From the NCBI GenBank assembly GCA_963819655.1, contig CAWFXA010000002.1, positions 1,216,001 through 1,280,000 on the forward strand: a DNA stretch of 64,000 nucleotides. The letters are read 5' to 3'. The position numbers and the translations under genes are program-made. Source of the DNA: an uncultured Chloroflexia bacterium. Its GTDB lineage: Bacteria; Chloroflexota; Limnocylindria; Limnocylindrales; CSP1-4. The notes beneath the pieces are model-generated. The model was given only the letters and a program-made list of their open reading frames with translations. It was not told the origin of the DNA and did not search any database. Position 1 is the stretch's first letter. Each line of letters opens with the position of its first letter. Positions 27,508 to 45,207 of this stretch are shown in pieces.

Positions 27508-27531
27508 CCGCCGTCCCCTCGCTTGCCCACG

Positions 27532-28371
27532 ATGGCCCAGTTCATCGCCCGCCTCGAGCGCTTCGACCTCGTCGGATCGACGAATGACGTCGTCCGGAGC
27601 TGGCTGGCGGACGGCACGCCCGAGGTCTGCCTGGCGATCGCCGACGAACAATCGGCGGGGCGTGGGCGAGATGGCCGGACGTGGTCGGCTCCGGCGGGGG
27701 CCGCGCTCCTTCTGTCGGCTGGTTTCCGGCCGTCGTGGCTCGCTGCAGCTCAGCTGTGGCGGTTGGCGGCTTCGGTGTCGCTGGCGATGGCCGAGGCAGG
27801 CGAGTCGATCGTGGGGCTCCCCGCTGGCTCGATCCGTCTCAAGTGGCCGAACGACCTGGTGGTCGAAGCGGAGGCCGGCGTTCGCAAGCTGGCTGGAGTC
27901 CTCGGAGAATCGACGGGCATCGGGACCGACGATCCGCGTGCCGTCATCGGCATCGGCGTGAACGGCGATTGGCCGACGGATGCGTTCCCGGCGGACCTCG
28001 CCGGCACGATGACGTCACTCCGCGCCCTTGCAGCCGGCCGGCCGATCGACCACGCAGCCCTTCTGGACGCGTTCGTCGAACGCCTTGAAGGACGGGTTGT
28101 CGCGTTGCGCGACGGCCGGTTCGACGTAGACGACTGGGCGGACCGGCAGGTCACGACAGGCCGCGCTGTCGTGCTGATCTCACCGGGCGGGGATGCCACG
28201 ACGGTCAGGGCGCTCGGCGTCGACCCGTCGAGCGGCGTGCTCGTCGTTGCGGATCCGACTGTCGATGGCGGCCAGCGCACGGTCGTCGTGGGCGAGATCC
28301 GTCATGTCCGGGTGCCGGCGATCCCGGAGACCGCCGCGACGTCGGCGGCTGCGGCGCAGGCACGGGTGTAA
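27532..28371 (+). CDS. birA: Biotin--[acetyl-CoA carboxylase] ligase (no N-terminal HTH)
   Basis: STND, EQSAGRGR.GR.W, LKWPND, KLAGVL.E, GIGVN. Confidence 0.93.
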   Translation: MAQFIARLERFDLVGSTNDVVRSWLADGTPEVCLAIADEQSAGRGRDGRTWSAPAGAALLLSAGFRPSWLAAAQLWRLAASVSLAMAEAGESIVGLPAGSIRLKWPNDLVVEAEAGVRKLAGVLGESTGIGTDDPRAVIGIGVNGDWPTDAFPADLAGTMTSLRALAAGRPIDHAALLDAFVERLEGRVVALRDGRFDVDDWADRQVTTGRAVVLISPGGDATTVRALGVDPSSGVLVVADPTVDGGQRTVVVGEIRHVRVPAIPETAATSAAAAQARV

Positions 28372-28375
28372 CGCG

Positions 28376-29014
28376 ATGGCCCGTCCGGCATTGAGGAAGA
28401 CGACGCGGTCCCAGCAGTCCGCTCGCCCACGTCTTGCCCACCTCGATCTTGATCGGTCGCTCGTGGATGCGGCACGGGCCGACCCCGCGCGGTTCGACGC
28501 GCTGTACCGGAAGTACGTTGCCCAGGTGTACAACTACGCGGTCTACGAGCTCGGCGACCATCACGAGGCAGAGGACGCCACGGAGCGGACGTTCCTGTCC
28601 GCCCTGGCTGGCCTGCCGCGGTTCGAGGAGCGCGCCCTCCCGAGGGACGGCGAGGGCGCGTCGACGTTCCGCATCTGGCTGTTCCGGATCGCCCGGAACG
28701 TCGTCAACGAGCGACGCCGTCGCTGGCGCCGCCGGCCCGAAGCACCGCTCGACCTGGCGCTCAGCGCCCCCGACCCGACCGACATCGAGCACGCCGTCGT
28801 CGCGCGCGAATCGGCGCTGTCGGCGTGGCGCGCGGTCGATCGTCTGAGCGGGGATCGCCGGCGCGCTGTCATCCTGCGTTTCGTCCACGAGATGTCGACC
28901 GCCGAGATCGCCGCCATCCTCGGCCGGTCGGAGGGAGCGGTCCGGGTCCTGATCCATCGCGGCCTGCGCGGCGTCGCACGCGACCTGCGCGACCGTCGCG
29001 AGGGGAGTGCGTGA
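28376..29014 (+). CDS. ECF sigma-70 factor
   Basis: Region 2 (FDALYRKY...AEDAT..TF...FRIWLFRIARN) and region 4 (LS...RRAVILRF..EMS.AEIA.ILGRSEGAVRV..HRG). Confidence 0.92.
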   Translation: MARPALRKTTRSQQSARPRLAHLDLDRSLVDAARADPARFDALYRKYVAQVYNYAVYELGDHHEAEDATERTFLSALAGLPRFEERALPRDGEGASTFRIWLFRIARNVVNERRRRWRRRPEAPLDLALSAPDPTDIEHAVVARESALSAWRAVDRLSGDRRRAVILRFVHEMSTAEIAAILGRSEGAVRVLIHRGLRGVARDLRDRREGSA

Positions 29015-29457
29015 CCGTCGGGTCGTCCGCGCGTGACGGGGAGATCGAGGCGCTCGTGGTCGATCGATATCTCGAATCGCTGCTCGCGCGCGCGCCGCGC
29101 GACACGGCGGACGTGCCCGAGGACCTGCGGGTGACCGCCGAGCGGCTGGCGACCGGCCTGCCGCGCTATCACCCGTCCTTCCGCTTCGAGGATGAGCTGG
29201 CCGCGCGCCTCGCGCTGGCCGCGGGTTCGGCGACCGGCACGATCGGCGAGGTGATCGACTTCCGCGCGCCGCGGCCGCGCGACCGCGGCGCGACCGATGA
29301 CGGCCGTGGCCAGGTTCGCCCGGTGGTGATCGGCGGCGTGGTCACATCGGCGGCGATCTCGCTCGCGGCCGCGTGGATGGCGTGGCGGCGCGGCCGGCCG
29401 CCCGCCGACGCGATGACGCGCGCCATGCGCGCCGTGGCCCGGACGAGGATCGTCTGA
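29011..29457 (+). CDS. Putative single-pass membrane anti-sigma factor
   Basis: Coupled to the ECF gene (GTGA) and to accD (TGATG); P..RF...L.ARL helix; one C-terminal TM. Confidence 0.55.
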   Translation: MTVGSSARDGEIEALVVDRYLESLLARAPRDTADVPEDLRVTAERLATGLPRYHPSFRFEDELAARLALAAGSATGTIGEVIDFRAPRPRDRGATDDGRGQVRPVVIGGVVTSAAISLAAAWMAWRRGRPPADAMTRAMRAVARTRIV

Positions 29458-31433
29458 TGCCGCTCAAGCTGCCCTCGTTCCGCGCCCGGCGCGATGTCTA
29501 CCCGCCGGACCTGTGGACCAAGTGCCCGACGTGCTCGACGATGCTGTTCAACAAGCAGCTCGAGAAGAACCTCAGGGTCTGCACCACGTGCGGCCACCAC
29601 TTCCGCCTGTCGGCCGAGGCACGCCTGGACCACCTGCTCGATCCGGGCACCTGGTCGGAGCGCGACCCCGGGCTGCAATCGGTCGACGCGCTCGGGTTCG
29701 TCGACCAGAAGCCCTACCCGGACCGGCTCGCTGCGGCCCAGCTCGCCACCGGCATGCGCGACGCGGCCGTTTGGGGCACAGGGTCGATCGGCGGCCACGA
29801 GATCGCGATCTGCGTGATGGATTTCGGGTTCATGGGCGGGTCGATGGGCGCGGTCGTCGGGGAGAAGGTCACACGGGCAGCCGAGCACGCGCTCGCCGCG
29901 CGGGTGCCGTTGGTCGTCGTGAGTGCGTCGGGCGGTGCCCGGATGCAGGAGGGCACGCTCGCGCTCATGCAGCTCGCCAAGACGCTTGCTGCGCTCGAGC
30001 GACTGCGGGCGAGCGGCGTGCCGTTCTTCTCGGTCCTGTCCGACCCCACGACCGGCGGCGTCTTCGCGTCGTTCGCCGCGGTCGGCGACGTCAATATCGC
30101 GGAGCCCGACGCGCTGATCGGATTCGCGGGGGCACGCGTGACGGCCGGGACGATCGCGGCGGAGCTGCCGCCTGGGTTCCAGCGGGCCGAGTTCCTGTTC
30201 AGCCACGGCTTCGTCGACCGGGTCGTCGCGCGGTCGGAGCTGCACGATGAGCTCGCTAGCCTGCTCCGACTGCTCCCGTCGCGCGGCGCGTTCGTCGAGC
30301 CGGAACCCGACGAGGATGTGCCGGCTTTCCGGCCATTCTCGTTCCTGACGACGATCGCCGACCGGGTGGGTGAGCTCGCGAACGGCGACGGCGCGACCGA
30401 CGACGACGAGGCCGCAGCTCCGACGCCGCCCGTCACGGTGCCCGCCGTGGATCCGGACGGTGCCGTGGCGATCGCGCCCTTGAACGACAAGGCACGCGAC
30501 GACGTGTGGGCCCGCGTCCAGCTCGCTCGCAGCCTGCGCAGGCCCCGGACGCTCGAATTCCTCGACGCGATGGCCGACGAGTTCGTCGAGCTGCACGGCG
30601 ATCGCCTGTTCGGCGACGACGCCGCGATCGTGGCCGGTCTGGCACGCATCGGTGGCAGGCGCCTAGCGGTGATCGGCCAGCAGAAGGGCGCGGACACCGA
30701 CGAGAACATCCGGCGCAACTTCGGCATGCCCCATCCCGAGGGCTATCGCAAGGCCATGCGGGTCATGGAGCTCGCCGAGCGTGCCGGCCTGCCGGTCGTC
30801 ACGTTCGTTGACGTCCCCGGCGCCCACCCGGGTCCAGAGTCGGAGGAGCGCGGCATCGCCGAGGCCATCGCCCGCTCGATCGGCCTGATGAGCCGCCTCC
30901 GGACGCCGATCGTGACGGTCATCACGGGGGAAGGCGGCTCCGGCGGGGCGTTGGCCATCGCGGTCGGCGACGTCGTGATCGCCCTCGAGAACGCGGTGTA
31001 TTCCGTCATCAGTCCCGAAGGCTGTGCGTCGATCCTGTGGCGGACGTCGGACGAAGCCGCGACCGCGGCCGCCGCGATGCGGATGTCGGCGGCCGACCAA
31101 CACGCGCTCGGCGTGATCGACATCGTGGTGCCGGAGCCAGGCGAGGGCGCACACGCAGAGCCCGAGGCGACAGCCGATCGGCTCCGCTCGATCATCCTCG
31201 ACAGGCTCGACGCGCTCGCTCCGCTGCCGATCGACACGCTTCTCGAGCAGCGCTACCGACGCTACCGTGCTCTGGGCGCCTACACTGAGGTCGCTCGACC
31301 CGAGGTGCCCGGGCGCGTGGACCGGAGTCTCGCCGATCGCCTGCGCGATCTGCTCGATCCGGCCCGGCGGGGACTCGTCGGGTTCGAAGGCTGGTCCCGT
31401 GACGACGATCCACCGGCTCGCGAGGAGGTATAG
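29457..31433 (+). CDS. accDA: Fused acetyl-CoA carboxylase carboxyltransferase beta-alpha
   Basis: Zn finger LWTKCPTC...VCTTC, FMGGSMG, SGGARMQEG (AccD); acidic linker; HGDR, RNFGM..PEGYRKA, GEGGSGGALA, YSVISPEGC (AccA). Confidence 0.95.
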   Translation: MPLKLPSFRARRDVYPPDLWTKCPTCSTMLFNKQLEKNLRVCTTCGHHFRLSAEARLDHLLDPGTWSERDPGLQSVDALGFVDQKPYPDRLAAAQLATGMRDAAVWGTGSIGGHEIAICVMDFGFMGGSMGAVVGEKVTRAAEHALAARVPLVVVSASGGARMQEGTLALMQLAKTLAALERLRASGVPFFSVLSDPTTGGVFASFAAVGDVNIAEPDALIGFAGARVTAGTIAAELPPGFQRAEFLFSHGFVDRVVARSELHDELASLLRLLPSRGAFVEPEPDEDVPAFRPFSFLTTIADRVGELANGDGATDDDEAAAPTPPVTVPAVDPDGAVAIAPLNDKARDDVWARVQLARSLRRPRTLEFLDAMADEFVELHGDRLFGDDAAIVAGLARIGGRRLAVIGQQKGADTDENIRRNFGMPHPEGYRKAMRVMELAERAGLPVVTFVDVPGAHPGPESEERGIAEAIARSIGLMSRLRTPIVTVITGEGGSGGALAIAVGDVVIALENAVYSVISPEGCASILWRTSDEAATAAAAMRMSAADQHALGVIDIVVPEPGEGAHAEPEATADRLRSIILDRLDALAPLPIDTLLEQRYRRYRALGAYTEVARPEVPGRVDRSLADRLRDLLDPARRGLVGFEGWSRDDDPPAREEV

Positions 31434-31436
31434 CGC

Positions 31437-32027
31437 GTGCCAGATCAGGTACCGGCCGACGCCCGACGATCGCGTGATGACGGCGAGCGTGCCGCCGACC
31501 ACGCAGCGATCGATCGCCTCACCGGCGAGCTCCTGCCCGCGCTGATCGCGAAGCTCGGGGCGACGGGCCTCGGCGAGCTCGAGGTGCGAGAGGGAGCCTG
31601 GCGCGTGAGGCTCCGGCGTCCCGCAGGTCCGCCAGTCGGCACCCGCGAGCGTCGTGCCAGCGATCGTGGCGGCGCCGCCGACCGGCTGACGGAGCGGTTG
31701 CCCGAGCGGCCGCCCCGCGCCCAGCACCTGCATCCCCACCCGGAACCCCCGGCCACAGCCCGTTCGGATTCGCGGAGCGTGGCCACGTCACCGGCGGTCG
31801 GCATCTACCAGCCGCGCAAGGACCTGACGATCGGCTCGCGCGTGCGCGCCGGAGATCGATTGGGTGCTGTCGACATGCTCGGCGTCGCGCAGGAGGTGGT
31901 CGCCCCGATCGACGGCGTCGTGGGCACCAGCCTGGTCGAGCCTGGCGAGGCCGTCGAGTACGGCCAGGAGCTGATCGTCGTCGAGCTCGCCGTCCCGATG
32001 TCGACCAACGGCACCGGCGGCGCCTGA
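31437..32027 (+). CDS. BCCP-like protein lacking the biotinylation lysine (BADC-like)
   Basis: BCCP-type N-terminus (GLGELEVREG) and biotinyl/lipoyl fold (SPAVG...GSRV.AGD.LG.V...V.APIDG.V...LVE.GE.VEYGQ.L), but DMLG replaces EAMK. Confidence 0.85.
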   Translation: MPDQVPADARRSRDDGERAADHAAIDRLTGELLPALIAKLGATGLGELEVREGAWRVRLRRPAGPPVGTRERRASDRGGAADRLTERLPERPPRAQHLHPHPEPPATARSDSRSVATSPAVGIYQPRKDLTIGSRVRAGDRLGAVDMLGVAQEVVAPIDGVVGTSLVEPGEAVEYGQELIVVELAVPMSTNGTGGA

Positions 32028-33397
32028 TGTTCAAGAAGGTCCTTATCGCGAACCGGGGGGAGATCGCCCTCCGCGTGTTGCGCGCGTGCCGCACGCTCGG
32101 CGCCGAGGCGGTGGTTGCCTACAGCGAGGCTGACCGCGAATCGCTCCCGGTCGGGCTCGCCGACGAGGCGATCTGCATCGGCCCGCCCGACGCTCAACGG
32201 TCGTACCTGTCCGCGCCTGCCGTGATCTCGGCCGCGCTGGTCACCGGCTGCGACGCGATCCATCCGGGCTACGGGTTCCTGTCCGAGGACGAGGGCTTCG
32301 CCGAGGTCGTGGCGGCTCACGGCATGACCTTCATCGGCCCACCGGCCAACGTCCTGGAGCGCTTCGCCAGCAAGGCCGGGACCCGCGAGCTCCTGGGTGC
32401 GCATGGGCTGCCGACGATCCCCGGTTCGGAAGGGATGTTGCGCGACGACATGCACGCCCTGGCCGAGGCCGAGCGCATCGGCTACCCGGTCCTGGTCAAG
32501 CCGTCCGCCGGTGGTGGTGGCAAGGGCATGCGCATGGTCCGCACGTCGCGCGAGCTCGAGTCCGTGCTCAAGGTCTGCCGGAGCGAGGCGAAGGCCGCGT
32601 TCGGCGACGACTCCCTGTATCTCGAGAAGTGGCTCGACGAGAACCGCCACATCGAAGTCCAGATCGCCGTCGACCGGTACGGCCACGGCGTCCACCTCGG
32701 GGAACGCGACTGCTCGGTCCAGCGGCGCCACCAGAAGATCCTCGAGGAGGCCCCGACACCGGCGCTGTCCGATGCCGTTCGTGCCGACCTGGCGGAGCGG
32801 GCGATCCGGGCGGTCGTCGCAGCCGGCTACGAGAACGTCGGCACCCTGGAGTTCCTGGTCGATCGCACCGGCAACTTCTACTTCATCGAGATCAACTGCC
32901 GGATCCAGGTCGAGCATCCCGTCACCGAGAGCCTGACCGGCGTCGACCTCGTCGCGATGCAGATGCGCATCGCCGCCGGCGAGCCGCTCGGCATCAGCCA
33001 GGCCGATATCAGGTTCTCCGGGCATGCGATCGAGTTCCGGATCAACGCCGAGGACCCCGCGCACGATTTCCGCCCGGGGGCCGGGGTGGTCGAGCGCTAT
33101 CACGCGCCGGGCGGGCCGGGCGTGCGTATGGACTCGCACCTGTTCACGGGCTACGAGGTCCCGCCCTTCTACGACTCGCTGCTCGGCAAGCTGATCGTGT
33201 GGGGTCCGGACCGCGAGACCGCCATCGCCCGCGGTCGAGTGGCGCTCGAGGAGCTCGTCATCGACGGCATCACGACCAACGTCGATATCCACCAGGCGCT
33301 CCTCGCCTCGGAGACGTTCCTCGAGGGACGGATGACGACGAACCTGCTCGATCGGGTGGGCAGCGCGGCCTTCCTCGCGGCGGCCGCCCGGGTATGA
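32027..33397 (+). CDS. accC: Biotin carboxylase
   Basis: KVLIANRGEIA, AIHPGYGFLSE, GGGGKGM, ERDCS.QRRHQK, RIQVEHPVTE, YDSLLGKLI. Confidence 0.97.
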   Translation: MFKKVLIANRGEIALRVLRACRTLGAEAVVAYSEADRESLPVGLADEAICIGPPDAQRSYLSAPAVISAALVTGCDAIHPGYGFLSEDEGFAEVVAAHGMTFIGPPANVLERFASKAGTRELLGAHGLPTIPGSEGMLRDDMHALAEAERIGYPVLVKPSAGGGGKGMRMVRTSRELESVLKVCRSEAKAAFGDDSLYLEKWLDENRHIEVQIAVDRYGHGVHLGERDCSVQRRHQKILEEAPTPALSDAVRADLAERAIRAVVAAGYENVGTLEFLVDRTGNFYFIEINCRIQVEHPVTESLTGVDLVAMQMRIAAGEPLGISQADIRFSGHAIEFRINAEDPAHDFRPGAGVVERYHAPGGPGVRMDSHLFTGYEVPPFYDSLLGKLIVWGPDRETAIARGRVALEELVIDGITTNVDIHQALLASETFLEGRMTTNLLDRVGSAAFLAAAARV

Positions 33398-33483
33398 CCG
33401 TCGTGCAGACCTGCACACGCCGACCCGTTGCCGCCGGCCGCCACCGGCCAGACTGAACCAGCACACCGCCGTTGGAGTCGCCC

Positions 33484-33939
33484 GTGACCGAGACCGTCCA
33501 CACGACCGCCGAGATCGAACGTCTGATCCCGCATCGCCACCCGTTCCTTCTGGTCGACCGCATCGTCGAGTACGACCCGGACGCGAAGCGGATCGTGGGG
33601 CTCAAGGGCGTCACGGCGACCGAGTGGTTCTTCGCCGGGCATTTCCCGGGTCTGCCGGTCATGCCGGGCGTCCTCCAGGTCGAGGCGCTCGCCCAGACGA
33701 TGGCGGTCTACGTCGCCAAGCAACCAGGCTTCGGCGACCGGATCGGCCTGTTCGCGGGCATCGACGATGTGCGCTTCAAGCGGATCGTCGCTCCGGGCGA
33801 CACGCTCCGACTCGAGGTCACGATGGAGAAGCTCGGCTCGCGCTTCGGCAAGGGTCGTGGCGTCGCGTCGGTCGCCGGCGAGGTGGCCTGCGAGGGGCTG
33901 TTGAGCTTCATCATCCCGCCCGAGGGTGCGCTCCGATGA
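33484..33939 (+). CDS. fabZ: 3-hydroxyacyl-ACP dehydratase
   Basis: IPHRHPFLLVDRI, FFAGHFP..PVMPGVL.VEALAQ, RFK..V.PGD.L. Confidence 0.96.
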   Translation: MTETVHTTAEIERLIPHRHPFLLVDRIVEYDPDAKRIVGLKGVTATEWFFAGHFPGLPVMPGVLQVEALAQTMAVYVAKQPGFGDRIGLFAGIDDVRFKRIVAPGDTLRLEVTMEKLGSRFGKGRGVASVAGEVACEGLLSFIIPPEGALR

Positions 33940-34682
33940 GCCGGATCGCTGCCCTCTCGGACGTACACGGCAATGCGGCCGCCCTCGAAGCCGTCCTCGC
34001 GGACATCGCACGCGAGAAGCCCGACGCGCTCATGGTCGCCGGCGATCTCGTGCTCAACGGCCCCGAACCTGCGCTCGTCATCGACGTTCTGCGCAGCCTC
34101 GCCGGCGACGGCGCCCTGATCATCGGTGGCAATACAGACATCGCGGTGGCCGACTTCGACTACGCGGCGGCCTTTCCGTGGATGATCGACGGCGTCCCGG
34201 ATGCCATCGTCGATGCTGCGGAATGGGCCCACGAGGCGATCGGGGACGAGCGTCTCGATTGGCTTCGGCGACTGCCGGCCGAACGCCGCTGGCGGACCGA
34301 CGACGACACGCTCGTCCTGGCCTGCCACGGATCGCCAGGTTCTCAGACCTCGGGCTTCGACCAGCATCTCGACCCGTCGGTCACGATCGAGCGAGTCGCC
34401 CGGACCGATGCTCGCGTCATCGTCTGTGGCCACACGCATCTGCCCGAAGTGCGCGACCTCGGCTGGAAGGTGATCGTCAACGACGGCTCCGCGGGCTACG
34501 TGTTCGATGGCGACCCGACCGCCTCCTGGGCGCTCATCGACATCGAGGACGACGAGGTCCGCGCCGAGATCCGACGCACGACGTTCGACACGCTGGCCGT
34601 CGCCAACGCCATCTCGGCCCGCGGCCTGGCGGGCGACGTCTACCGCGCCGCGACGGTCCGCACCGGGAAGTTGGTGCGATGA
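33936..34682 (+). CDS. Calcineurin-like metallophosphoesterase (YfcE/MJ0936-like)
   Basis: SDVHGN, AGDLV..GP, GGNTD, CHGSP, CGHTH, N.GS.G. Confidence 0.88.
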   Translation: MSRIAALSDVHGNAAALEAVLADIAREKPDALMVAGDLVLNGPEPALVIDVLRSLAGDGALIIGGNTDIAVADFDYAAAFPWMIDGVPDAIVDAAEWAHEAIGDERLDWLRRLPAERRWRTDDDTLVLACHGSPGSQTSGFDQHLDPSVTIERVARTDARVIVCGHTHLPEVRDLGWKVIVNDGSAGYVFDGDPTASWALIDIEDDEVRAEIRRTTFDTLAVANAISARGLAGDVYRAATVRTGKLVR

Positions 34683-34698
34683 GCCGGCGGGTCGCGTG

Positions 34699-35952
34699 AT
34701 GGGTAGTCGGCGGGTCGTCGTGACCGGGATGGGGCTCGTGACGCCGCTCGGAAACGACCTCGAGACCACATGGGCGGGCATGGTCGCCGGGCGCTCCGGG
34801 ATCACGACGATCGACGCGTTCGACCCGTCACGGCTGACCGTCCGCATCGCCGGCCAGGTCCGCGACTTCGACGCGAGCCACGTCCTCGACCGGAAGGACC
34901 AGCGCCGGACCGACCGCTACATCCAGTTCGGGCTGGTCGCGGCGCGCGAGGCGATGGACCAGGCCGGCCTGCCCGATCGCCTGGAGGGAGAGCTGGCGGA
35001 GCGCACCGGCGCGATCCTGGGCACCGGGCTCGGCGGCGTCGGGACCCTCAACGAAGGCATCAGCACGAACGTGACGCGCGGCCCGGACCGGATCAGCCCG
35101 TTCCTCATCCCGATGGGCATCCCCAACGTCGGATCCGGGCAGATCGCGATCAACTACGGGATGACCGGGCCGAACTTTGCGACCGTCTCGGCATGTGCCA
35201 CCGGCGGACACGCCGTCGGCGAGTCGTTCGAGACGATCCGGCGCGACGACGCCGACGTGATGGTCTCGGGCGGCACGGAGGCCGGGATCTACGAGTTCCT
35301 CATCGGCGGGTTCGCCGCGATGCGCGCGCTGTCCACCCGCAACGACGACCCGGCAGCCGCGTCGCGCCCGTTCGACTCCGGTCGCGACGGCTTCATCTGC
35401 GGCGAGGGAGCGGGTGTCCTGGTCCTCGAAGAGCTCGACCACGCCCGGGCGCGCGGGGCGACGCCTCTCGCGGAGATCGTCGGGTACGGCGCGACCGCCG
35501 ACGCGTCACACATCACCCTGCCGGCGCCCGGTGGCATCGGAGCGGTCCGCGCCGCGCGACGTGCGCTCGAGAAGGCCGGCCTGGCGCCCGACGACGTCGA
35601 TCACGTGAACGCCCACGCGACATCGACCCCGGAAGGCGACAAGTCGGAGCTCCAGGCGATCAAGACGATCCTCGGAGAGCACGCCGCCGGGACCCCGATC
35701 ACCGCCAACAAGTCGATGATCGGCCACACGCTCGGGGCGGCCGGCGCGATCGAGTCGATCGTCTCGGTCATGACCATCCGCGAGGGCTGCATCCCGCCGA
35801 CGATCAATCTGACCGACCCGGATCCCGAGGCCCAGGGACTGACGATCGTGGCGAACGAAGCGGCCCGCCACGACGTCCGCGTGGTGCTGTCGAACTCGTT
35901 CGGGTTCGGTGGCCAGAACACGGCCCTGATCTTCCAGCGGTGGGACGCGTGA
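34699..35952 (+). CDS. fabF: Beta-ketoacyl-ACP synthase II
   Basis: RRVVVTGMG, SACATG, SRPFD, NAHATST, KSMIGH.LGAAG, SNSFGFGG. Confidence 0.96.
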   Translation: MGSRRVVVTGMGLVTPLGNDLETTWAGMVAGRSGITTIDAFDPSRLTVRIAGQVRDFDASHVLDRKDQRRTDRYIQFGLVAAREAMDQAGLPDRLEGELAERTGAILGTGLGGVGTLNEGISTNVTRGPDRISPFLIPMGIPNVGSGQIAINYGMTGPNFATVSACATGGHAVGESFETIRRDDADVMVSGGTEAGIYEFLIGGFAAMRALSTRNDDPAAASRPFDSGRDGFICGEGAGVLVLEELDHARARGATPLAEIVGYGATADASHITLPAPGGIGAVRAARRALEKAGLAPDDVDHVNAHATSTPEGDKSELQAIKTILGEHAAGTPITANKSMIGHTLGAAGAIESIVSVMTIREGCIPPTINLTDPDPEAQGLTIVANEAARHDVRVVLSNSFGFGGQNTALIFQRWDA

Positions 35953-36569
35953 CCGACGACCTCGAACCGATGGCCGTGGGTCCCGGCGCAGAGCCGCTGC
36001 CGGACGGCGTCGTCGACGCGCTCGAAGCACAGGCGACATCGGTGGAGTCGGCGGCCGAGCCGCAGGGGGCAGACCCGGCCGCGCTTCGCGATGACGGCGA
36101 TCTCGAGCTGCTCGGCCTCATCGATCGCCTTGCAGCCCTGCTCGATCGCTCCGACCTGACAGAGCTCGAGGTGGAGTCTGGCGGCACCGGCCTCGTCCTG
36201 CGCAAGCCATCAGCCCTTGCTCCCATCACCGTCGCGAGCGTGGCGGCGACGTCGCCCGCGGCGACGGCCGTAGCCATGCCGGCCTCGGGCGGGGCAGGGC
36301 CGAGCGACCGCGAGCCGGTGGCGCCTGCCAAGCCGTCGATCAAGGCGCCGCTCACGGGCATCTTCTATGCATCGCCGGCTCCTGGGACGGCGCCATACGT
36401 GGCGGTCGGCGGCGAGGTCGCGGTCGGCCAGATCATCGGTCTCATCGAGGCCATGAAGCTGTTCAACGAGATCAAGTCGGACCTGGCTGGGCGCGTCGTC
36501 CGGGTCGTGGCCGAGAGCGGCGCCCTGGTCAAGGCCAAGCAGCCGCTCATCGAGGTGGAGCCGCTGTGA
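35949..36569 (+). CDS. accB: Biotin carboxyl carrier protein (canonical)
   Basis: LTELEVE N-terminal domain, APLTGIFY, thumb SPAPG, intact IEAMKLFNEI. Confidence 0.93.
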   Translation: MTDDLEPMAVGPGAEPLPDGVVDALEAQATSVESAAEPQGADPAALRDDGDLELLGLIDRLAALLDRSDLTELEVESGGTGLVLRKPSALAPITVASVAATSPAATAVAMPASGGAGPSDREPVAPAKPSIKAPLTGIFYASPAPGTAPYVAVGGEVAVGQIIGLIEAMKLFNEIKSDLAGRVVRVVAESGALVKAKQPLIEVEPL

Positions 36570-37768
36570 ACGACGTCGCTCGGCAGCCGCGGGCCCACGT
36601 CACCGGATGGGGTCGCTACGCACCAGCCCAGGTGCTCACGAACAAGGACCTCGAGCGGATGGTCGACACGTCCGACGAGTGGATCGTCTCGCGGACCGGC
36701 ATCCGCGAGCGTCGGGTCGCGGCCGCCAACGAGACCACCGCGTCGATGGCCGCCGTGGCCTCCCTGCGGGCGATCAGGACTGCCGGCATCGACCCCGACG
36801 ACATCGACCTCATCCTGCTCGCGACGCTGACTCCCGACTACTGGATGCCGTCGACCGCGGCGCTCGTCAAGGAGGCGATCGGCAACACGCGTGCGGCGGC
36901 GATGGACGTCGCGGCCGCCTGTTCGGGGTTCGTCTACGCGTTCGCTACGGCCCAGGCTTACATCACCAGCGGGATCGCCAAGCACGTCCTGGTGATCGGC
37001 GCGGAGCTGCTGACCCGCTTCCTCGACTATACCGATCGGAGCACGTGCATCCTGTTCGGGGACGGCGCGGGTGCGGTGGTCCTGTCGGCCAGCGATGAGC
37101 CGGGTGGCGCGCTCGGGATCGAGCTCACGACGGCTCCCCAGGGCGCCTACATGATCTGGCTGCCGGCCGGCGGCGCCAAGAGCCCGCCATCGGCGGAGAC
37201 GATCGCGCGCGGCGAGCACTTCATCCGGATGGAGGGCAAGGAGACGTACCGGTTCGCCACCAAGACGATGGCGACGACCGCCCTCGAATCGGTCAGCAAG
37301 TCCGGGCTCCAGCCGTCGGACATCGACCTGTTCATCCCGCACCAGGCGAACATCCGCATCGTCGAGGCGGTCGCCAAGGGGCTCGACCTGCCGATGGACA
37401 AGATGTACGTGAACCTCGACCGCTACGGCAATACCTCCGCGGCGTCCGTGCCGATCGCCTTGGCCGAAGCCGTGAACGAGGGCCGCGTCAAGATCGGCGA
37501 CCGGATCGTGATGGTCGCATTCGGGGCGGGCTTCACCTCGGGGGCCGTGACGGTCGAGTGGACGGCCGATCCGGCGCGCGGCCGGGCCGGTGACGCGGCC
37601 GTGAACGCCGACGACGTCAATGTCCGGTTGCCGGTCGACTGGGACTCGGTCGACCCGATCCCGCCGGCGCTGGTCGAGCTGATGGCCCGACCCGGCACGG
37701 TCGATGTCCCGTTGGACGACGTCGTCCCAGGCGAACCCGAATCGGCCCACTCGGAGGTCCATGCGTGA
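36566..37768 (+). CDS. fabH: Beta-ketoacyl-ACP synthase III with ~65-aa C-terminal extension
   Basis: DTSDEWI.SRTGI, AACSGF, LFGDGA, PHQAN, YGNTSAAS, FGAG. Confidence 0.95.
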   Translation: MNDVARQPRAHVTGWGRYAPAQVLTNKDLERMVDTSDEWIVSRTGIRERRVAAANETTASMAAVASLRAIRTAGIDPDDIDLILLATLTPDYWMPSTAALVKEAIGNTRAAAMDVAAACSGFVYAFATAQAYITSGIAKHVLVIGAELLTRFLDYTDRSTCILFGDGAGAVVLSASDEPGGALGIELTTAPQGAYMIWLPAGGAKSPPSAETIARGEHFIRMEGKETYRFATKTMATTALESVSKSGLQPSDIDLFIPHQANIRIVEAVAKGLDLPMDKMYVNLDRYGNTSAASVPIALAEAVNEGRVKIGDRIVMVAFGAGFTSGAVTVEWTADPARGRAGDAAVNADDVNVRLPVDWDSVDPIPPALVELMARPGTVDVPLDDVVPGEPESAHSEVHA

Positions 37769-38514
37769 TCGATCTGACCGGCAAGGCGGCCCTCGTGACC
37801 GGTGGCTCGCGCGGGATCGGCAAGGCGATCGGTCTGCGGCTCGCCCGCCAGGGCGCCGACGTCGCATTCAGCTACAAGGGCAACACGGATGCCGCTAACG
37901 CGACGGCCGCCGAGATCGAGTCGATCGGGACGCGCGCGTTGGCGATCCAGGGTGACGTCCGGGATCCCGAGTCGGCCGAGGCCGTGGTCAAGACCGCGCT
38001 CGAAGCCTTCGGCAAGATCGACATCCTGGTGAACAACGCCGGGGTGACCCGCGACGACCTGATCATGCGGATGAGCGCCGAGGCCTGGCGCGAGGTGCTC
38101 GAGACCAACCTCTTCGGGGCGTTTTGGATGACCAAGGCCGTCACCCGGCCGATGCTCAAGGCGCGTGCCGGCCGGATCGTGAACATCACGTCGGTATCCG
38201 GGCAGGCCGGCCAGATGGGGCAGGCCAACTACAGCTCGGCCAAGGCTGGGCTGATCGGCCTGACGAAGGCCACCGCGCGTGAACTGGCATCGCGCGGGAT
38301 CACCGTCAACGCCGTGGCCCCGGGCTTCGTCCTGACCGAGCTCACCCAGGGATTGCCCGACGCCCTGAAAGAGGAGATCACGGCGCGCACTCCGCTGGGA
38401 CGGTTCGGCACGACCGAGGAGGTCGCCGATGCCGTGGCGTTCCTCGCCTCTGACGAGGCCGGCTACGTCACCGGCCAGGTCCTGGCCGTCGACGGCGGCC
38501 TGGTCATGATGTAG
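37765..38514 (+). CDS. fabG: 3-oxoacyl-ACP reductase
   Basis: TGGSRGIG, NNAG.TRD, YSSAK, NAVAPGF, VDGG. Confidence 0.96.
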   Translation: MIDLTGKAALVTGGSRGIGKAIGLRLARQGADVAFSYKGNTDAANATAAEIESIGTRALAIQGDVRDPESAEAVVKTALEAFGKIDILVNNAGVTRDDLIMRMSAEAWREVLETNLFGAFWMTKAVTRPMLKARAGRIVNITSVSGQAGQMGQANYSSAKAGLIGLTKATARELASRGITVNAVAPGFVLTELTQGLPDALKEEITARTPLGRFGTTEEVADAVAFLASDEAGYVTGQVLAVDGGLVMM

Positions 38515-42143: not shown

Positions 42144-42263
42144 GTCGCTCACACGCACACCTTTTCGACGAACGAGCACGGGCCGTCGGCCCAGGCGCAG
42201 GTCAGCCGTCGACTGGGCGGATGGCCATGATCGTTTCGCTCGTCACGGGTGTGCTACAGCGAC
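42144..42263. repeat. 120-bp palindromic dispersed element, copy A
   Basis: Ends GTCGCT/AGCGAC; inner inverted pairs GCACACC/GGTGTGC and GCCCAG/CTGGGC; homologous to 56810-56929. Confidence 0.75.
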
Positions 42264-42323
42264 ATCGCGGGCGCGCTGACTGCCCGGTGTCGGCCACTGC
42301 GCGTCCCGCGTACCATCGCGGCC

Positions 42324-44340
42324 ATGCCCCGCCGCGCCGCCCGCACCGATCCGCCGCCCGACGCCCGCCGCGAGGCCGAGCTGGCCGTCGAGGAGCCGGA
42401 CATCGAGGGGCCGGCGACGGGCGCCGACGACCCCGACCTCGAACCCGCCGACCTCGAACCCGCCGACCTTGACCTTGCCGACGCTGACCTGCGGCCGGAC
42501 GACGAGGACGACGAGCCCGACCGCCAGCTGACGAACGGCGACCTCGCGCGGATCTTCCACGACATCGGCGACATGCTCGAGGTCAAGGGCGAGCTGTCGT
42601 TCAAGACCGTCGCCTATCACCGCGCCGCGGACGCGATCGGGCGCAGCCCGGTCGACCTCGTCGCGGCCTACCGCGACGGCCAGGCACCCAAGATCCCCGG
42701 CGTCGGGCCGCGATCAGCGACAAGATCGCCGAGTTCGCCACGACCGGCCGGATGGCCTACTACGACAAGCTCGTCGCTGAGGTGCCGCCGAGCCTCGTCG
42801 ATCTGCTCCGCATCCCGGGTCTCGGTCCGAAGACCGTCCGCCAGATCTGGAAGGACCTCGGGATCGTGACGATCGACGACCTCCGCAGGGCCGCCGAAGC
42901 CGGCACGCTGCGCGAGCTGCGGGGCCTCTCCGAGCGGACCGAGCAGCTCATCCTCGAGGGGATCGCGCGTCTCGAATCCACGCCCGCGGCGCATGCTCCT
43001 CCACCGGGCGGAAGTCATCGATCCTCGGCCTGATGGAGGCCCTGACGGAGGCACCCGGCCTGCGCTCGATCGAGCCCGCCGGCTCGTTCCGGCGCCGTCG
43101 CGAGACGATCGGCGACCTCGACCTGCTCGCCGAGACCGACGACGGCCCCGGGCTCGATCGAGCGGTTCACGACGCTCGGGCATCGTGGACCAGGTCGCTC
43201 AACAAGGGCGGCTACAAGGCGGCCGTCCAGCTGCTGCGCGGCCCGCAGGTCGACCTGATGGTCATGCCGCCCGGCGAGGCCGGCACGTACCTCATCCACT
43301 TCACCGGCTCGAAGGAGCACAACGTCCGGCTCCGCGAGCGCGCCCGCGACCAGGGCTGGAGCCTGTCGGAGAAGGGCTTCCTGCGGATCGGCGAGGACGG
43401 CGAGCCGCTGACCGGCGACGCCGCCGAGCTGCGGACGTTCGCCACGGAGGAGGAGGCGTACGCGTTCCTCGACCTGCCGTTCATCGAGCCCGAGCTGCGC
43501 GAGGACGAGGGCGAGATCGAGGCGGCGCTCGCCGGCACGCTCCCGCACGCTCATCACGCTCGCCGACCTGCGCGGCGACCTCCACAGCCACTCGGACTGG
43601 TCCGACGGCGACGCACGCGATCGAGGTCATGGCCGAGACCGCGCGCCGTCGCGGCTACGCCTACCAGGTCCTGACCGACCACTCGCCAGTCGCTGGCCAT
43701 CGCCCGCGGCCTGGCGCCCGATCGGGTCGAGCAGCAGCGGGCGATCATCGCCGCGCTCAACGCGCGCTTCGCGGCGGAGGAGGCGGACGGCACCGCGCCG
43801 CCCGAGACGCCGCCCGAGGGCTTCCGACTGCTCCACGGCTGCGAGCTCGAGGTCCGCGCCGATGGCGCCCTCGACTACGACGACGAGCTGCTCGCGCGGT
43901 TCGACCTCGTCGTCGCGTCGGTCCACGTCGTCGCGCCGCCAGCCGCGCGCCGAGCTGACGCGGCGGACGCTCAACGCGATCCGCAGCCCCGCACGTCGAC
44001 GTCATCGCCCACCCGTCCGGCCGGATGATCGGGACGCGCGACGACCTCGACCTCGACTGGGACGCGGTCTACGCCGAGGCGGCGCGGACCGGCACGGCGC
44101 TCGAGATGAACGGGTCGCCCCACCGGCTCGACCTCGCGGTCGAGCGCGCGCGGCGGGCGGTCGAGGCTGGGCTGCGTGCTGTCGATCGACTCCGACGCGC
44201 ACAAGATCGCCGAGCTCGACTACCTGCGCTGGGGCATCACCCAGGCACGCCGGGCGTGGGTCGAGCCGGCACGCGTCCTCAACACGCGCTCCCGGGCCGA
44301 CCTCCTCGCCTGGGTCGCGGACAAGCCGGAGCGGGTGTGA
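42324..44340 (+). CDS. polX: DNA polymerase X / PHP 3'-5' exonuclease (multiple frameshifts)
   Basis: AYHRAA, IPG.G HhH motifs, AGSFRR.RETIGDLD, VDL, HFTGSKEHN, IEPELRED; PHP motifs DLHSHS.WSDG, TDHS, GCE, IAHP, EMN, DSDAH. Confidence 0.9.
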
Positions 44341-44369
44341 GCGCGATCGCCTCGCGTACCATCGCGGCG

Positions 44370-45207
44370 ATGCAGGACGACCGAGCCGGCCGCCGCGACC
44401 TCGCGCTCGCCGCGGTCACGATCGTCGGGCTGTCGCGCCTGATCGAGCCGCCGGGCGTCTGGTTCGTCGCGATCTTCCTGCTCGGCGCGATGCTCCTCGG
44501 CACGCTGCAGGTCCTCGGCGACGAGGCCGCGCGACACGGACAGCCACGCGCTCGGCGTCCCGATCGAGTCGCTCATCCTGCCCGCCGTGGCCGCCGTCGC
44601 CTGCCTCGGCGCGATCCGTCTCGTGCCGTTCGGGCTCGGACTGGTCCCGGCGCTCGCGCGTGACCGGCTTCATCGTGGAGCGCTGACCTCGCGCTCGAGG
44701 CGCGCATCCTCGCCTCGCCGGCCGGCCTCGACGACGACGGTCGCACCGCGGTCCTGGTCACGACGCTGGTCGTCGCGTTCCTCGCGTTCGTCGGCGTCGC
44801 CGCGACCGTGCCGGGCGGGCTCGCCCAGCCCGGGCGCGAGCGGCGCGGCCGGTCTGCCGCTGCCGCGACGCGAGCTGCTGGTCCTCGCCGCCGGCGATGC
44901 CGTCGTCGCGTTCCTGCTCGGGTACCGGGCGGCCGCGCTCCGCGTGACGAGCCTGCGCGACGCGCTGTGGTCCGCGGCGACGTACGCGATCGCGATCGCG
45001 ATCGGCGGCCGCGGCGCTCCGGGCGATCGCAGATCCCGCGGCTGATCGGCCCGGCCCTGCTGACGCTGACGTTCTACCTGTGGGACGCGTTCCACGCGGC
45101 GACGCCGTCCCGCCGGCGGGACGTCCGCTGGCTCTGGCAGACGTCGCTGCTCGGCGGTCCTCGGGCTCGTCGTGATCGGCTGGAACCTGCATGCATCCGG
45201 GACGTAG
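44370..45207 (+). CDS. Hypothetical polytopic membrane protein (frameshifted)
   Basis: Successive hydrophobic helices spread over several frames (e.g. IPRLIGPALLTLTFYLWD); TACCAT 7 nt before the ATG. Confidence 0.6.

Follow-up and report, generated by a model that had tools for sequence, protein, structure and literature searches.

The window, by which we mean the whole 64,000-nucleotide stretch of DNA that was analyzed, comes from a 3.49-Mb genome (91% complete) whose close homologues are named Ca. Limnocylindrales (Chloroflexota). It carries a run of genes in the order aspartate kinase-like gene, birA, ECF sigma factor gene, 148-aa open reading frame (ORF), fused accD-accA, Lys-less accB paralogue, accC, fabZ, metallophosphoesterase gene, fabF, carrier accB, fabH, and fabG (Table 1). 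[quoted passage not shown] The ORF of the Lys-less paralogue is clean, as was also claimed, and its end overlaps accC by one base (TGATG, positions 32025 to 32029). A promoter scan found no sigma-70-like site (0.4 expected), and terminators were at chance level. In contigs of three metatranscriptome runs from one study, the Lys-less gene was covered at about 96% identity with a word share of 0.07 to 0.11; such contigs cannot show transcription.

Several other features of the region were noted. The accD-accA gene is a single ORF with an acidic Ala/Pro linker; elsewhere in the class, accD and accA appear either fused or side by side, depending on the family. The ECF sigma gene and the 148-aa ORF, the latter without a Pfam or NCBIfam match, lie inside the birA-acc run (28385 to 29457), and both are absent from the loci of family f2 that were examined. 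The metallophosphoesterase is YfcE-like (33936 to 34682) and is conserved between fabZ and fabF in families f1 and f2, including the streamlined genomes; none was seen at this place at the f3 and f4 loci. Farther downstream, at 42249 to 44700, a gene that we take to be of the PolX/PHP type is broken across several frames, which suggests assembly frameshifts in that region.

Table 1. Features of the acc-fab gene run in the window (aa, amino acids of the respective protein)
Feature	Position	Strand	Remark
birA, biotin ligase	27523..28371	+	Profile match; same gene run
accD-accA, fused carboxyltransferase	29373..31433	+	Likely start ATG 29457
Shine-Dalgarno-like GAGGAGG	31422..31428	+	8 nt before GTG start of the Lys-less gene
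Lys-less AccB paralogue (candidate "anchor" copy)	31437..32027	+	196 aa, GTG start, no internal stop
N-terminal helix + beta-hairpin module, aa 15-62, corresponding to the AccB oligomerization module	31479..31622	+	AF2, dN/dS
Linker, disordered and variable, aa 63-112	31623..31772	+	Low pLDDT, variable in alignments
Biotinyl-fold domain without thumb, aa 113-184	31773..31988	+	Alignment, AF2, Foldseek
V121-G122, equivalent to E. coli V88-G89	31797..31802	+	V88 is a biotin carboxylase contact of the non-catalytic dock
DMLG in place of EAMK, aa 146-149	31872..31883	+	G149 at the biotin-Lys position; alignment
VEYG, aa 173-176, equivalent to E. coli V146-E147-F148-D149	31953..31964	+	E147 and F148 are dock contacts; alignment
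accC, biotin carboxylase	32027..33397	+	Dock-side residues I49, I51, P53, P64, A65, V72, R16 present
fabZ, metallophosphoesterase, fabF	33472..35952	+	Separate accC from carrier accB
Carrier accB, Lys-bearing, full thumb	35949..36569	+	TIGR00531, 110 bits
T136 of carrier, replacing dock residue V88	36354..36356	+	Alignment
EAMK of carrier, aa 167-170	36447..36458	+	Alignment
LVKA of carrier, replacing PVEF (P145-F148)	36525..36536	+	E147 charge-reversed to K; alignment
fabH and fabG	36566..38514	+	Profile matches

When the Lys-less protein was aligned with E. coli BCCP, its D146, M147, L148, and G149 stood opposite E119, A120, M121, and K122, leaving it without the E-x-M-K biotinylation motif. 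Over the stretch equal to E. coli residues 90 to 105 it has 10 residues instead of 16, and the thumb is therefore absent. It scores 38.9 bits against TIGR00531, the AccB/BCCP equivalog, below the curated cutoff of 115.2. The AF2 model (mean pLDDT of 80) shows a helix at residues 15 to 43, strands at 47 to 52 and 55 to 60, a disordered linker, and a biotinyl domain at 113 to 184, and its best Foldseek match is E. coli BCCP (1BDO; TM-score of 0.80 by target). The first-pass annotation had thus been right about the replaced motif, the missing thumb, and the retention of both the BCCP N-terminal segment and the biotinyl fold. Its term "lysine-less" is correct for the biotin Lys only. Two lysines occur elsewhere in the protein, K39 in the helix and K128, but they are present in just 21 and 15 of 97 aligned homologues, respectively. 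Lipoyl domains carry their acceptor Lys in a DKA motif; this Lys too is absent from the hairpin tip of the protein, where a Gly is found.

The loss of the Lys is conserved among orthologues. DMLG did not vary in the 120 top homologues, and the site was without Lys in the 144 class-profile representatives (of 150) that had a readable frame. In six within-genus pairs, dN/dS was 0.02 to 0.14 for the N-terminal module of the Lys-less protein and 0.10 to 0.19 for its biotinyl domain. The gene is under strong purifying selection. We considered whether the protein could be a duplicate in decay or an artifact of sequencing, or else a carrier that is modified at a different Lys or by lipoate. In favor of this, its biotinyl domain does diverge faster than that of the carrier AccB (dN/dS of 0.02 to 0.10), but the invariant DMLG, the Gly at this position in all 80 tabulated genomes of the class (see below), and the dN/dS values rule out strain decay and sequencing error; the first two also argue that the loss is not due to chance. 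Together with the lack of a Lys at the site in any representative and of a conserved Lys elsewhere, this makes the whole explanation barely credible. We also looked for natural fusions of the Lys-less protein to AccA or AccC. Ten matches to longer proteins were examined and none was a clean, repeated fusion; they are read as frameshift artifacts because they are single sequences with gapped joins to either neighbor and mostly partial domains.

We then monitored the distribution of the gene in Limnocylindria. A profile of the Lys-less protein matched in all 151 genomes of the class, three of them unpublished and used for no other result, although any biotinyl domain can match such a profile. 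The gene itself was matched in 56 of 61 genomes, and the five without a match are 59 to 90% complete. Eighty genomes from five families were tabulated. Every one of them carries Gly where the biotin Lys would be, and the thumb is shortened throughout, to 10 residues in 78 genomes and to 8 in 2. Family f2 contributes 19 of the 80, with genome sizes of 1.0 to 1.4 Mb, and retains the gene. The Lys-bearing partner was retrieved in 64 genomes; for the remaining 16, the retrieved sequence did not reach that far. The coupling to accC noted in the first-pass annotation holds in families f1 and f2, whereas in f3 and f4 fabD often intervenes (fabD directly follows the Lys-less gene in 25 of the 80 genomes). 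The constant neighbor is instead accA, which lies directly upstream in 79 of 80 genomes; in the remaining one, the gene stands at a contig end.

To look beyond the class, we searched 301 genomes of the phylum, inspected the 40 top non-class loci, and added six further genomes. Since these genomes were picked by score and not at random, the survey gives no frequency for the phylum. A Lys-less AccB-like gene was found in 36 non-class Chloroflexota genomes belonging to 17 families, and 33 of these genes occupy the slot X in the arrangement pepQ/efp-X-xseA. A separate Lys-bearing AccB is present in all 36 genomes, directly after fabF in 34 and before fabH in 2. The residue at the Lys position was N in 12 copies, G in 9, Q in 6, R in 5, D in 2, A in 1, and M in 1, and 26 of the 36 copies keep a 16-residue loop and hence the length of the thumb. 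Because seven different residues are found at the Lys position outside the class and most of those copies keep the loop, the Gly and the loss of the thumb appear, from these alignments, to be later, lineage-specific changes. In contrast to these divided pairs, 15 genomes from eight families have an undivided, intact AccB in the efp-xseA slot, and a second full-length AccB was not found in 13 of them. The remaining two, from family f51 (genomes G340 and G396), have a second AccB that is Lys-bearing and dock-less, and no Lys-less gene was retrieved from them, a combination that counts against the anchor model proposed below. This second AccB (L380:5007-5561 and L381:4999-5553) carries EVMK and K88/D147/R148 beside an intact efp-slot AccB; it could be a halfway state or the carrier of another enzyme.

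A pattern scan of metagenomes pointed to a still wider range. Among the 80 loci shown, we read a related Lys-less protein in 75, and accC lay beside the match in 71; the pattern required VE[YF]G, and these loci cannot test the dock residues discussed below. Source names indicate that homologues occur in Ca. Rubrimentiphilum (Vulcanimicrobiota) and Ca. Baltobacteraceae. These contigs (L406-L485) encode a Vulcanimicrobiota-type Lys-less, short-thumb BCCP just upstream of accC. EALG is found in 105 of 120 homologues of this type, and in several gene calls a PF01288 domain is attached upstream. One Atlas cluster pointed to Armatimonadota. Further loci stood apart: in family f10 (L275, L276, and L292) the Lys-less copy has left the efp slot and precedes an unknown ORF of about 270 aa that these loci share, and the AccB of L285, on a 3-kb contig of a Chloroflexota bin (G434:C32), groups with E. 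coli in the tree and is probably contamination.

We next wanted to know which residues distinguish the two copies. In the E. coli tube, the non-catalytic dock of BCCP places V88 and F148 against biotin carboxylase (BC), while P145 clusters with AccD and BC and E147 forms a salt bridge with K8 of AccD; M121 and M123 are listed as dock residues as well (PMC11160672, supplement). In E. coli numbering, V88, E147, and F/Y148 occur together in 115 of 116 Lys-less copies, in none of 100 Lys-bearing partners, and in 15 of 15 undivided AccBs; the first of these counts is biased, since most of the Lys-less copies came from a search with a VEYG-containing profile, while the carriers were found via TIGR00531 or by position. 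Two false matches in fabH frames had been dropped beforehand, and three thumb-less carriers of other carboxylases were listed separately, as were four Lys-bearing copies located outside both slots. The V88 equivalent is V in all 116 Lys-less copies, and L121 is kept in 109. In the Lys-bearing partners within the class, position 88 is instead T, position 147 is K or R, and position 148 is A, R, or S; these partners keep the biotin Lys and the thumb.

A family-weighted scan over the 63 positions conserved in undivided AccB gave the same picture. Among the positions retained in the Lys-less copy but not in the carrier, F148, V88, E147, and P145 ranked highest, three of them being neighbors (145 to 148). 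Conversely, the positions kept by the carrier and lost by the Lys-less copy were F102, K122, P97, I117, Y92, D130, and N125, which belong to the thumb and the hairpin. On the enzyme side, the dock-side residues of AccC are kept in most of 86 loci, which carries little weight because they are conserved in biotin carboxylases generally, and the equivalent of AccD Lys8, the partner of E147, was ambiguous in the alignment. Judged from these residues, the two copies appear to have lost complementary surfaces, and the match to the published list of dock contacts is our main argument. With the dock residues in one paralogue and the biotin residues in the other, the two functions of BCCP would be separated.

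The history of the pair was addressed with a tree of 110 rows and 89 columns from which the trait columns had been removed, built by a quick method and with long branches. The Lys-less protein of the window falls in a 35-row group with the Chloroflexota efp-slot Lys-less copies and the Vulcanimicrobiota proteins (SH-aLRT of 98), and all 40 carrier rows lie on one side of a branch with a support of 79. A single clade of all Lys-less rows was not rejected (p-AU of 0.74), a result that does not show that there is one. Since a single Lys-less origin is not rejected and the carriers lie on one side of a branch, the counts given above are not independent and may reflect one event. The simplest reading is that the old efp-linked accB became the Lys-less copy, that the carrier derives from a second copy beside fabF, and that the Lys-less gene later moved next to accA in Limnocylindria.

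We propose, with a probability of roughly 0.6, that the Lys-less protein is an obligate anchor subunit of acetyl-CoA carboxylase (ACC), docking on AccC while its N-terminal module holds the true carrier in place. The ancestral AccB would have had two jobs, carrying biotin with the Lys hairpin and the thumb, and holding the enzyme through the non-catalytic dock on the AccC/AccD interface and the oligomerizing N-terminal module. In much of Chloroflexota these jobs would have been split between two paralogues, the Lys-less protein of the window being the anchor. Its biotinyl-fold domain would occupy the non-catalytic dock on AccC/AccD, its N-terminal helix-hairpin would co-assemble with that of the Lys-bearing AccB, and it would in this way tether a carrier that can no longer dock alone. 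The anchor would thus be a stoichiometric, probably essential, non-catalytic subunit that works as plant BADC does in its "glue" role. What we observed is the reciprocal loss of residues, the co-occurrence and synteny of the genes, the purifying selection, and the fold; from these we infer AccC binding, formation of a heteromer, and essentiality of the anchor.

This proposal is in line with that of Xu et al., according to whom BCCP is held by the dock and by an N-terminal beta-barrel; against it speaks that the same authors regard the dock as being of moderate stability only and as occupied in part (PMC11160672). In our sequences, the hydrophobic pattern of the N-terminal module is kept in both the Lys-less copy and the carrier. 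A 2+2 model of the two N-terminal modules reached an ipSAE of 0.48, compared to 0.02 for the best of three controls, with contacts agreeing to at least 94% and a partner pLDDT of at least 78; it supports a heteromer weakly. The mark applied to such models let through 116 of 157 solved pairs and 2 of 215 mismatched ones; among those at or below 0.60 were 18 of the solved pairs and both mismatches. Furthermore, paralogues of a self-associating module can reach the mark by their likeness, and such passes are wrong more often than not unless the pairing was likely beforehand.

The protein could instead be a regulatory decoy. By competing with the biotinylated AccB or diluting it, such a decoy would reduce flux, depending on how much of it is present or on a signal. 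The first-pass annotation had suggested a BADC-like decoy or scaffold that controls fatty acid flux. The initial description of BADC was that of an inhibitor, and it has been said to play a dynamic role (PMC12706156). Outside the class, the two genes lie at different loci and could be expressed separately, and in families f1 and f4 an ECF sigma gene is found in the same run. Within the class, however, the Lys-less gene shares its run with accA and accC, and it is retained in the streamlined genomes. The dock residues are absent from 100 of 100 carriers, so there would be little to compete for at this site. Moreover, unlike plant BADC, which has PII as a partner, the Lys-less protein occurs in genomes where the PII family (PF00543) was found in none of five (G000 and G037-G040; 90 to 93% complete), against 13 of 14 in the control. 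We thus regard a decoy as unlikely. Because the partner is dock-less, the gene is kept in genomes of 1 to 1.4 Mb, and PII was not found in those five genomes, an obligate structural subunit fits better. Of the earlier suggestion, the conserved non-biotinylatable BCCP paralogue and, probably, the scaffold stand, while a role in regulating flux is hypothetical.

A second way in which the protein might act other than as an anchor is on biotin ligase, either by unproductive binding of BirA or as a biotin sensor whose N-terminal module represses the operon. It would fit with the presence of birA in the same run within the class and with the finding that the N terminus of E. coli AccB (residues 1 to 68) negatively regulates accBC (PMC11160672). 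Yet across the phylum the protein varies in the hairpin that holds the Lys position, while conservation peaks at the AccC/AccD dock, no birA match was found beside the Lys-less gene at the non-class loci examined, and the loss of the dock residues from the carrier would be left unexplained. We consider this explanation quite improbable.

The proposed anchor was then compared with plant BADC, which lacks the biotinylation motif, has been called unique to the plant enzyme, and is described as the "glue" needed for BC-BCCP assembly that binds the N-terminal region of BCCP (PMC11926652). Whether BADC is an inhibitor or an assembler of ACC is disputed (PMC11926652, PMC12706156). Like BADC, the Lys-less protein has an N-terminal module, a disordered linker, and a biotinyl-fold domain, it has no acceptor Lys (116 of 116 copies), and it co-occurs with a biotinylatable BCCP, in 64 of 80 class genomes (judged from the stretch retrieved around each gene) and in 36 of 36 non-class genomes. 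While BADC is a nuclear-encoded plastid protein of plants and green algae, the gene in the window is bacterial and part of a chromosomal operon.

The residues of the dock were compared by eye in a handful of soybean sequences from the supplement of a paper in which BADC is not mentioned by name, so that the assignment rests on the missing Lys (PMC11432495, supplement). The two soybean BCCPs have SPMAG and SVSVD and are thus without V88, P145, E147, and F148. The three Lys-less BCCP-like proteins have SPTVG or SPKVG, PVGYG, and, at the Lys position, DQFG twice and EQLG once, which agrees with the motif given for BADC in the first-pass annotation. They keep the equivalents of V88, P145, and Y148 and have Gly at 147. 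As in the window protein, a Gly is found at the Lys position, and V88, P145, and Y148 are kept and lost from the true BCCP. In contrast, the window protein has DMLG, sharing the acidic residue and the Gly but not the Gln, has its thumb deleted where the soybean proteins keep a long basic loop in the thumb region, and keeps E147 where they have Gly. Going by residue numbering, Arabidopsis BCCP1 has S190 at the position of E147.

The likeness between DMLG and the BADC motif is probably convergent, because the Gly is lineage-specific and the soybean loop and Gln are missing here. A common origin of the Lys-less protein and plant BADC, by descent or transfer, would account for the Gly and for the V88/P145/Y148 shared by both. 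However, only some lineages have fixed the Gly, the tree places the window protein with the Chloroflexota efp-slot copies and the Vulcanimicrobiota proteins, the Atlas neighbors listed are all bacterial, and the carriers differ, with PLTG and LFNE here and PMAG and LMNE in the soybean sequences (PMC11432495, supplement). No BADC sequence was among 52 PDB sequence matches. A shared origin is therefore very improbable, and the Lys-less protein, while probably working like BADC as a scaffold, is probably not its orthologue.

We extended the comparison to other carboxylases. E. coli AccB (TIGR00531; 1BDO, 4HR7, and 8UXZ) has the same helix-hairpin module, linker, and biotinyl fold and the same V88/E147/F148, but the window protein is without K122 and thumb, and in E. 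coli one protein does both jobs. The epsilon-type subunits of actinobacterial acyl-CoA carboxylases are small, are not known to be related to BCCP, and bind the carboxyltransferase. As the anchor is proposed to be, they are a non-catalytic glue that assembles and activates the carboxylase (PMC11926652). In Chloroflexus aurantiacus, of the same phylum, ACC (8HZ4) consists of a BC1 fused to BCCP, a BC2, and a separate BCCP, and BCCP-derived hairpins build an eight-stranded barrel that joins the subunits (PMC11077971). Unlike in the window, its carrier is tethered by fusion and biotinylated, and no Lys-less paralogue is described in the available part of that paper (PMC11077971).

In the literature listings searched, neither a Lys-less BCCP from bacteria nor a split of this kind came up, although the primary BADC papers or their supplements might mention bacterial homologues. 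A carrier divided in this way, with one paralogue serving only as the dock and the other only bearing biotin, might be a recurrent design among multi-subunit biotin carboxylases, having occurred once or more in Chloroflexota and Vulcanimicrobiota, in an alphaproteobacterial pxpA-linked cluster, and in plants (BADC and BCCP); we would put this at slightly less than even odds. If it were true, the individual residues would account for the dependence of plant BCCP on BADC in binding BC, and the non-catalytic dock would be the essential tether of heteromeric ACC. The pair opens to direct test both the question of whether BADC is a glue or an inhibitor and the part played by the non-catalytic dock. 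Four genes from a single operon, together with birA, suffice to rebuild the system. The model predicts that exchanging residues 88, 145, 147, and 148 should free the carrier from its helper. The prediction extends to BCCP and BADC of plants, two proteins of relevance to seed-oil engineering. It would also follow that many "accB" annotations in Chloroflexota denote a non-carrier.

Finally, one Lys-less BCCP-like protein was seen outside these phyla. On plasmid pMESCI01 of Mesorhizobium ciceri (NC_014918.1, L526:150-3166), genes for an EAMK carrier with T88/Q147/S148, AccC, a Lys-less protein, and PxpA follow one another in this order. The Lys-less protein has 131 aa and V88/G147/Y148, and in this single case the same split is seen in an apparently different biotin-dependent carboxylase.
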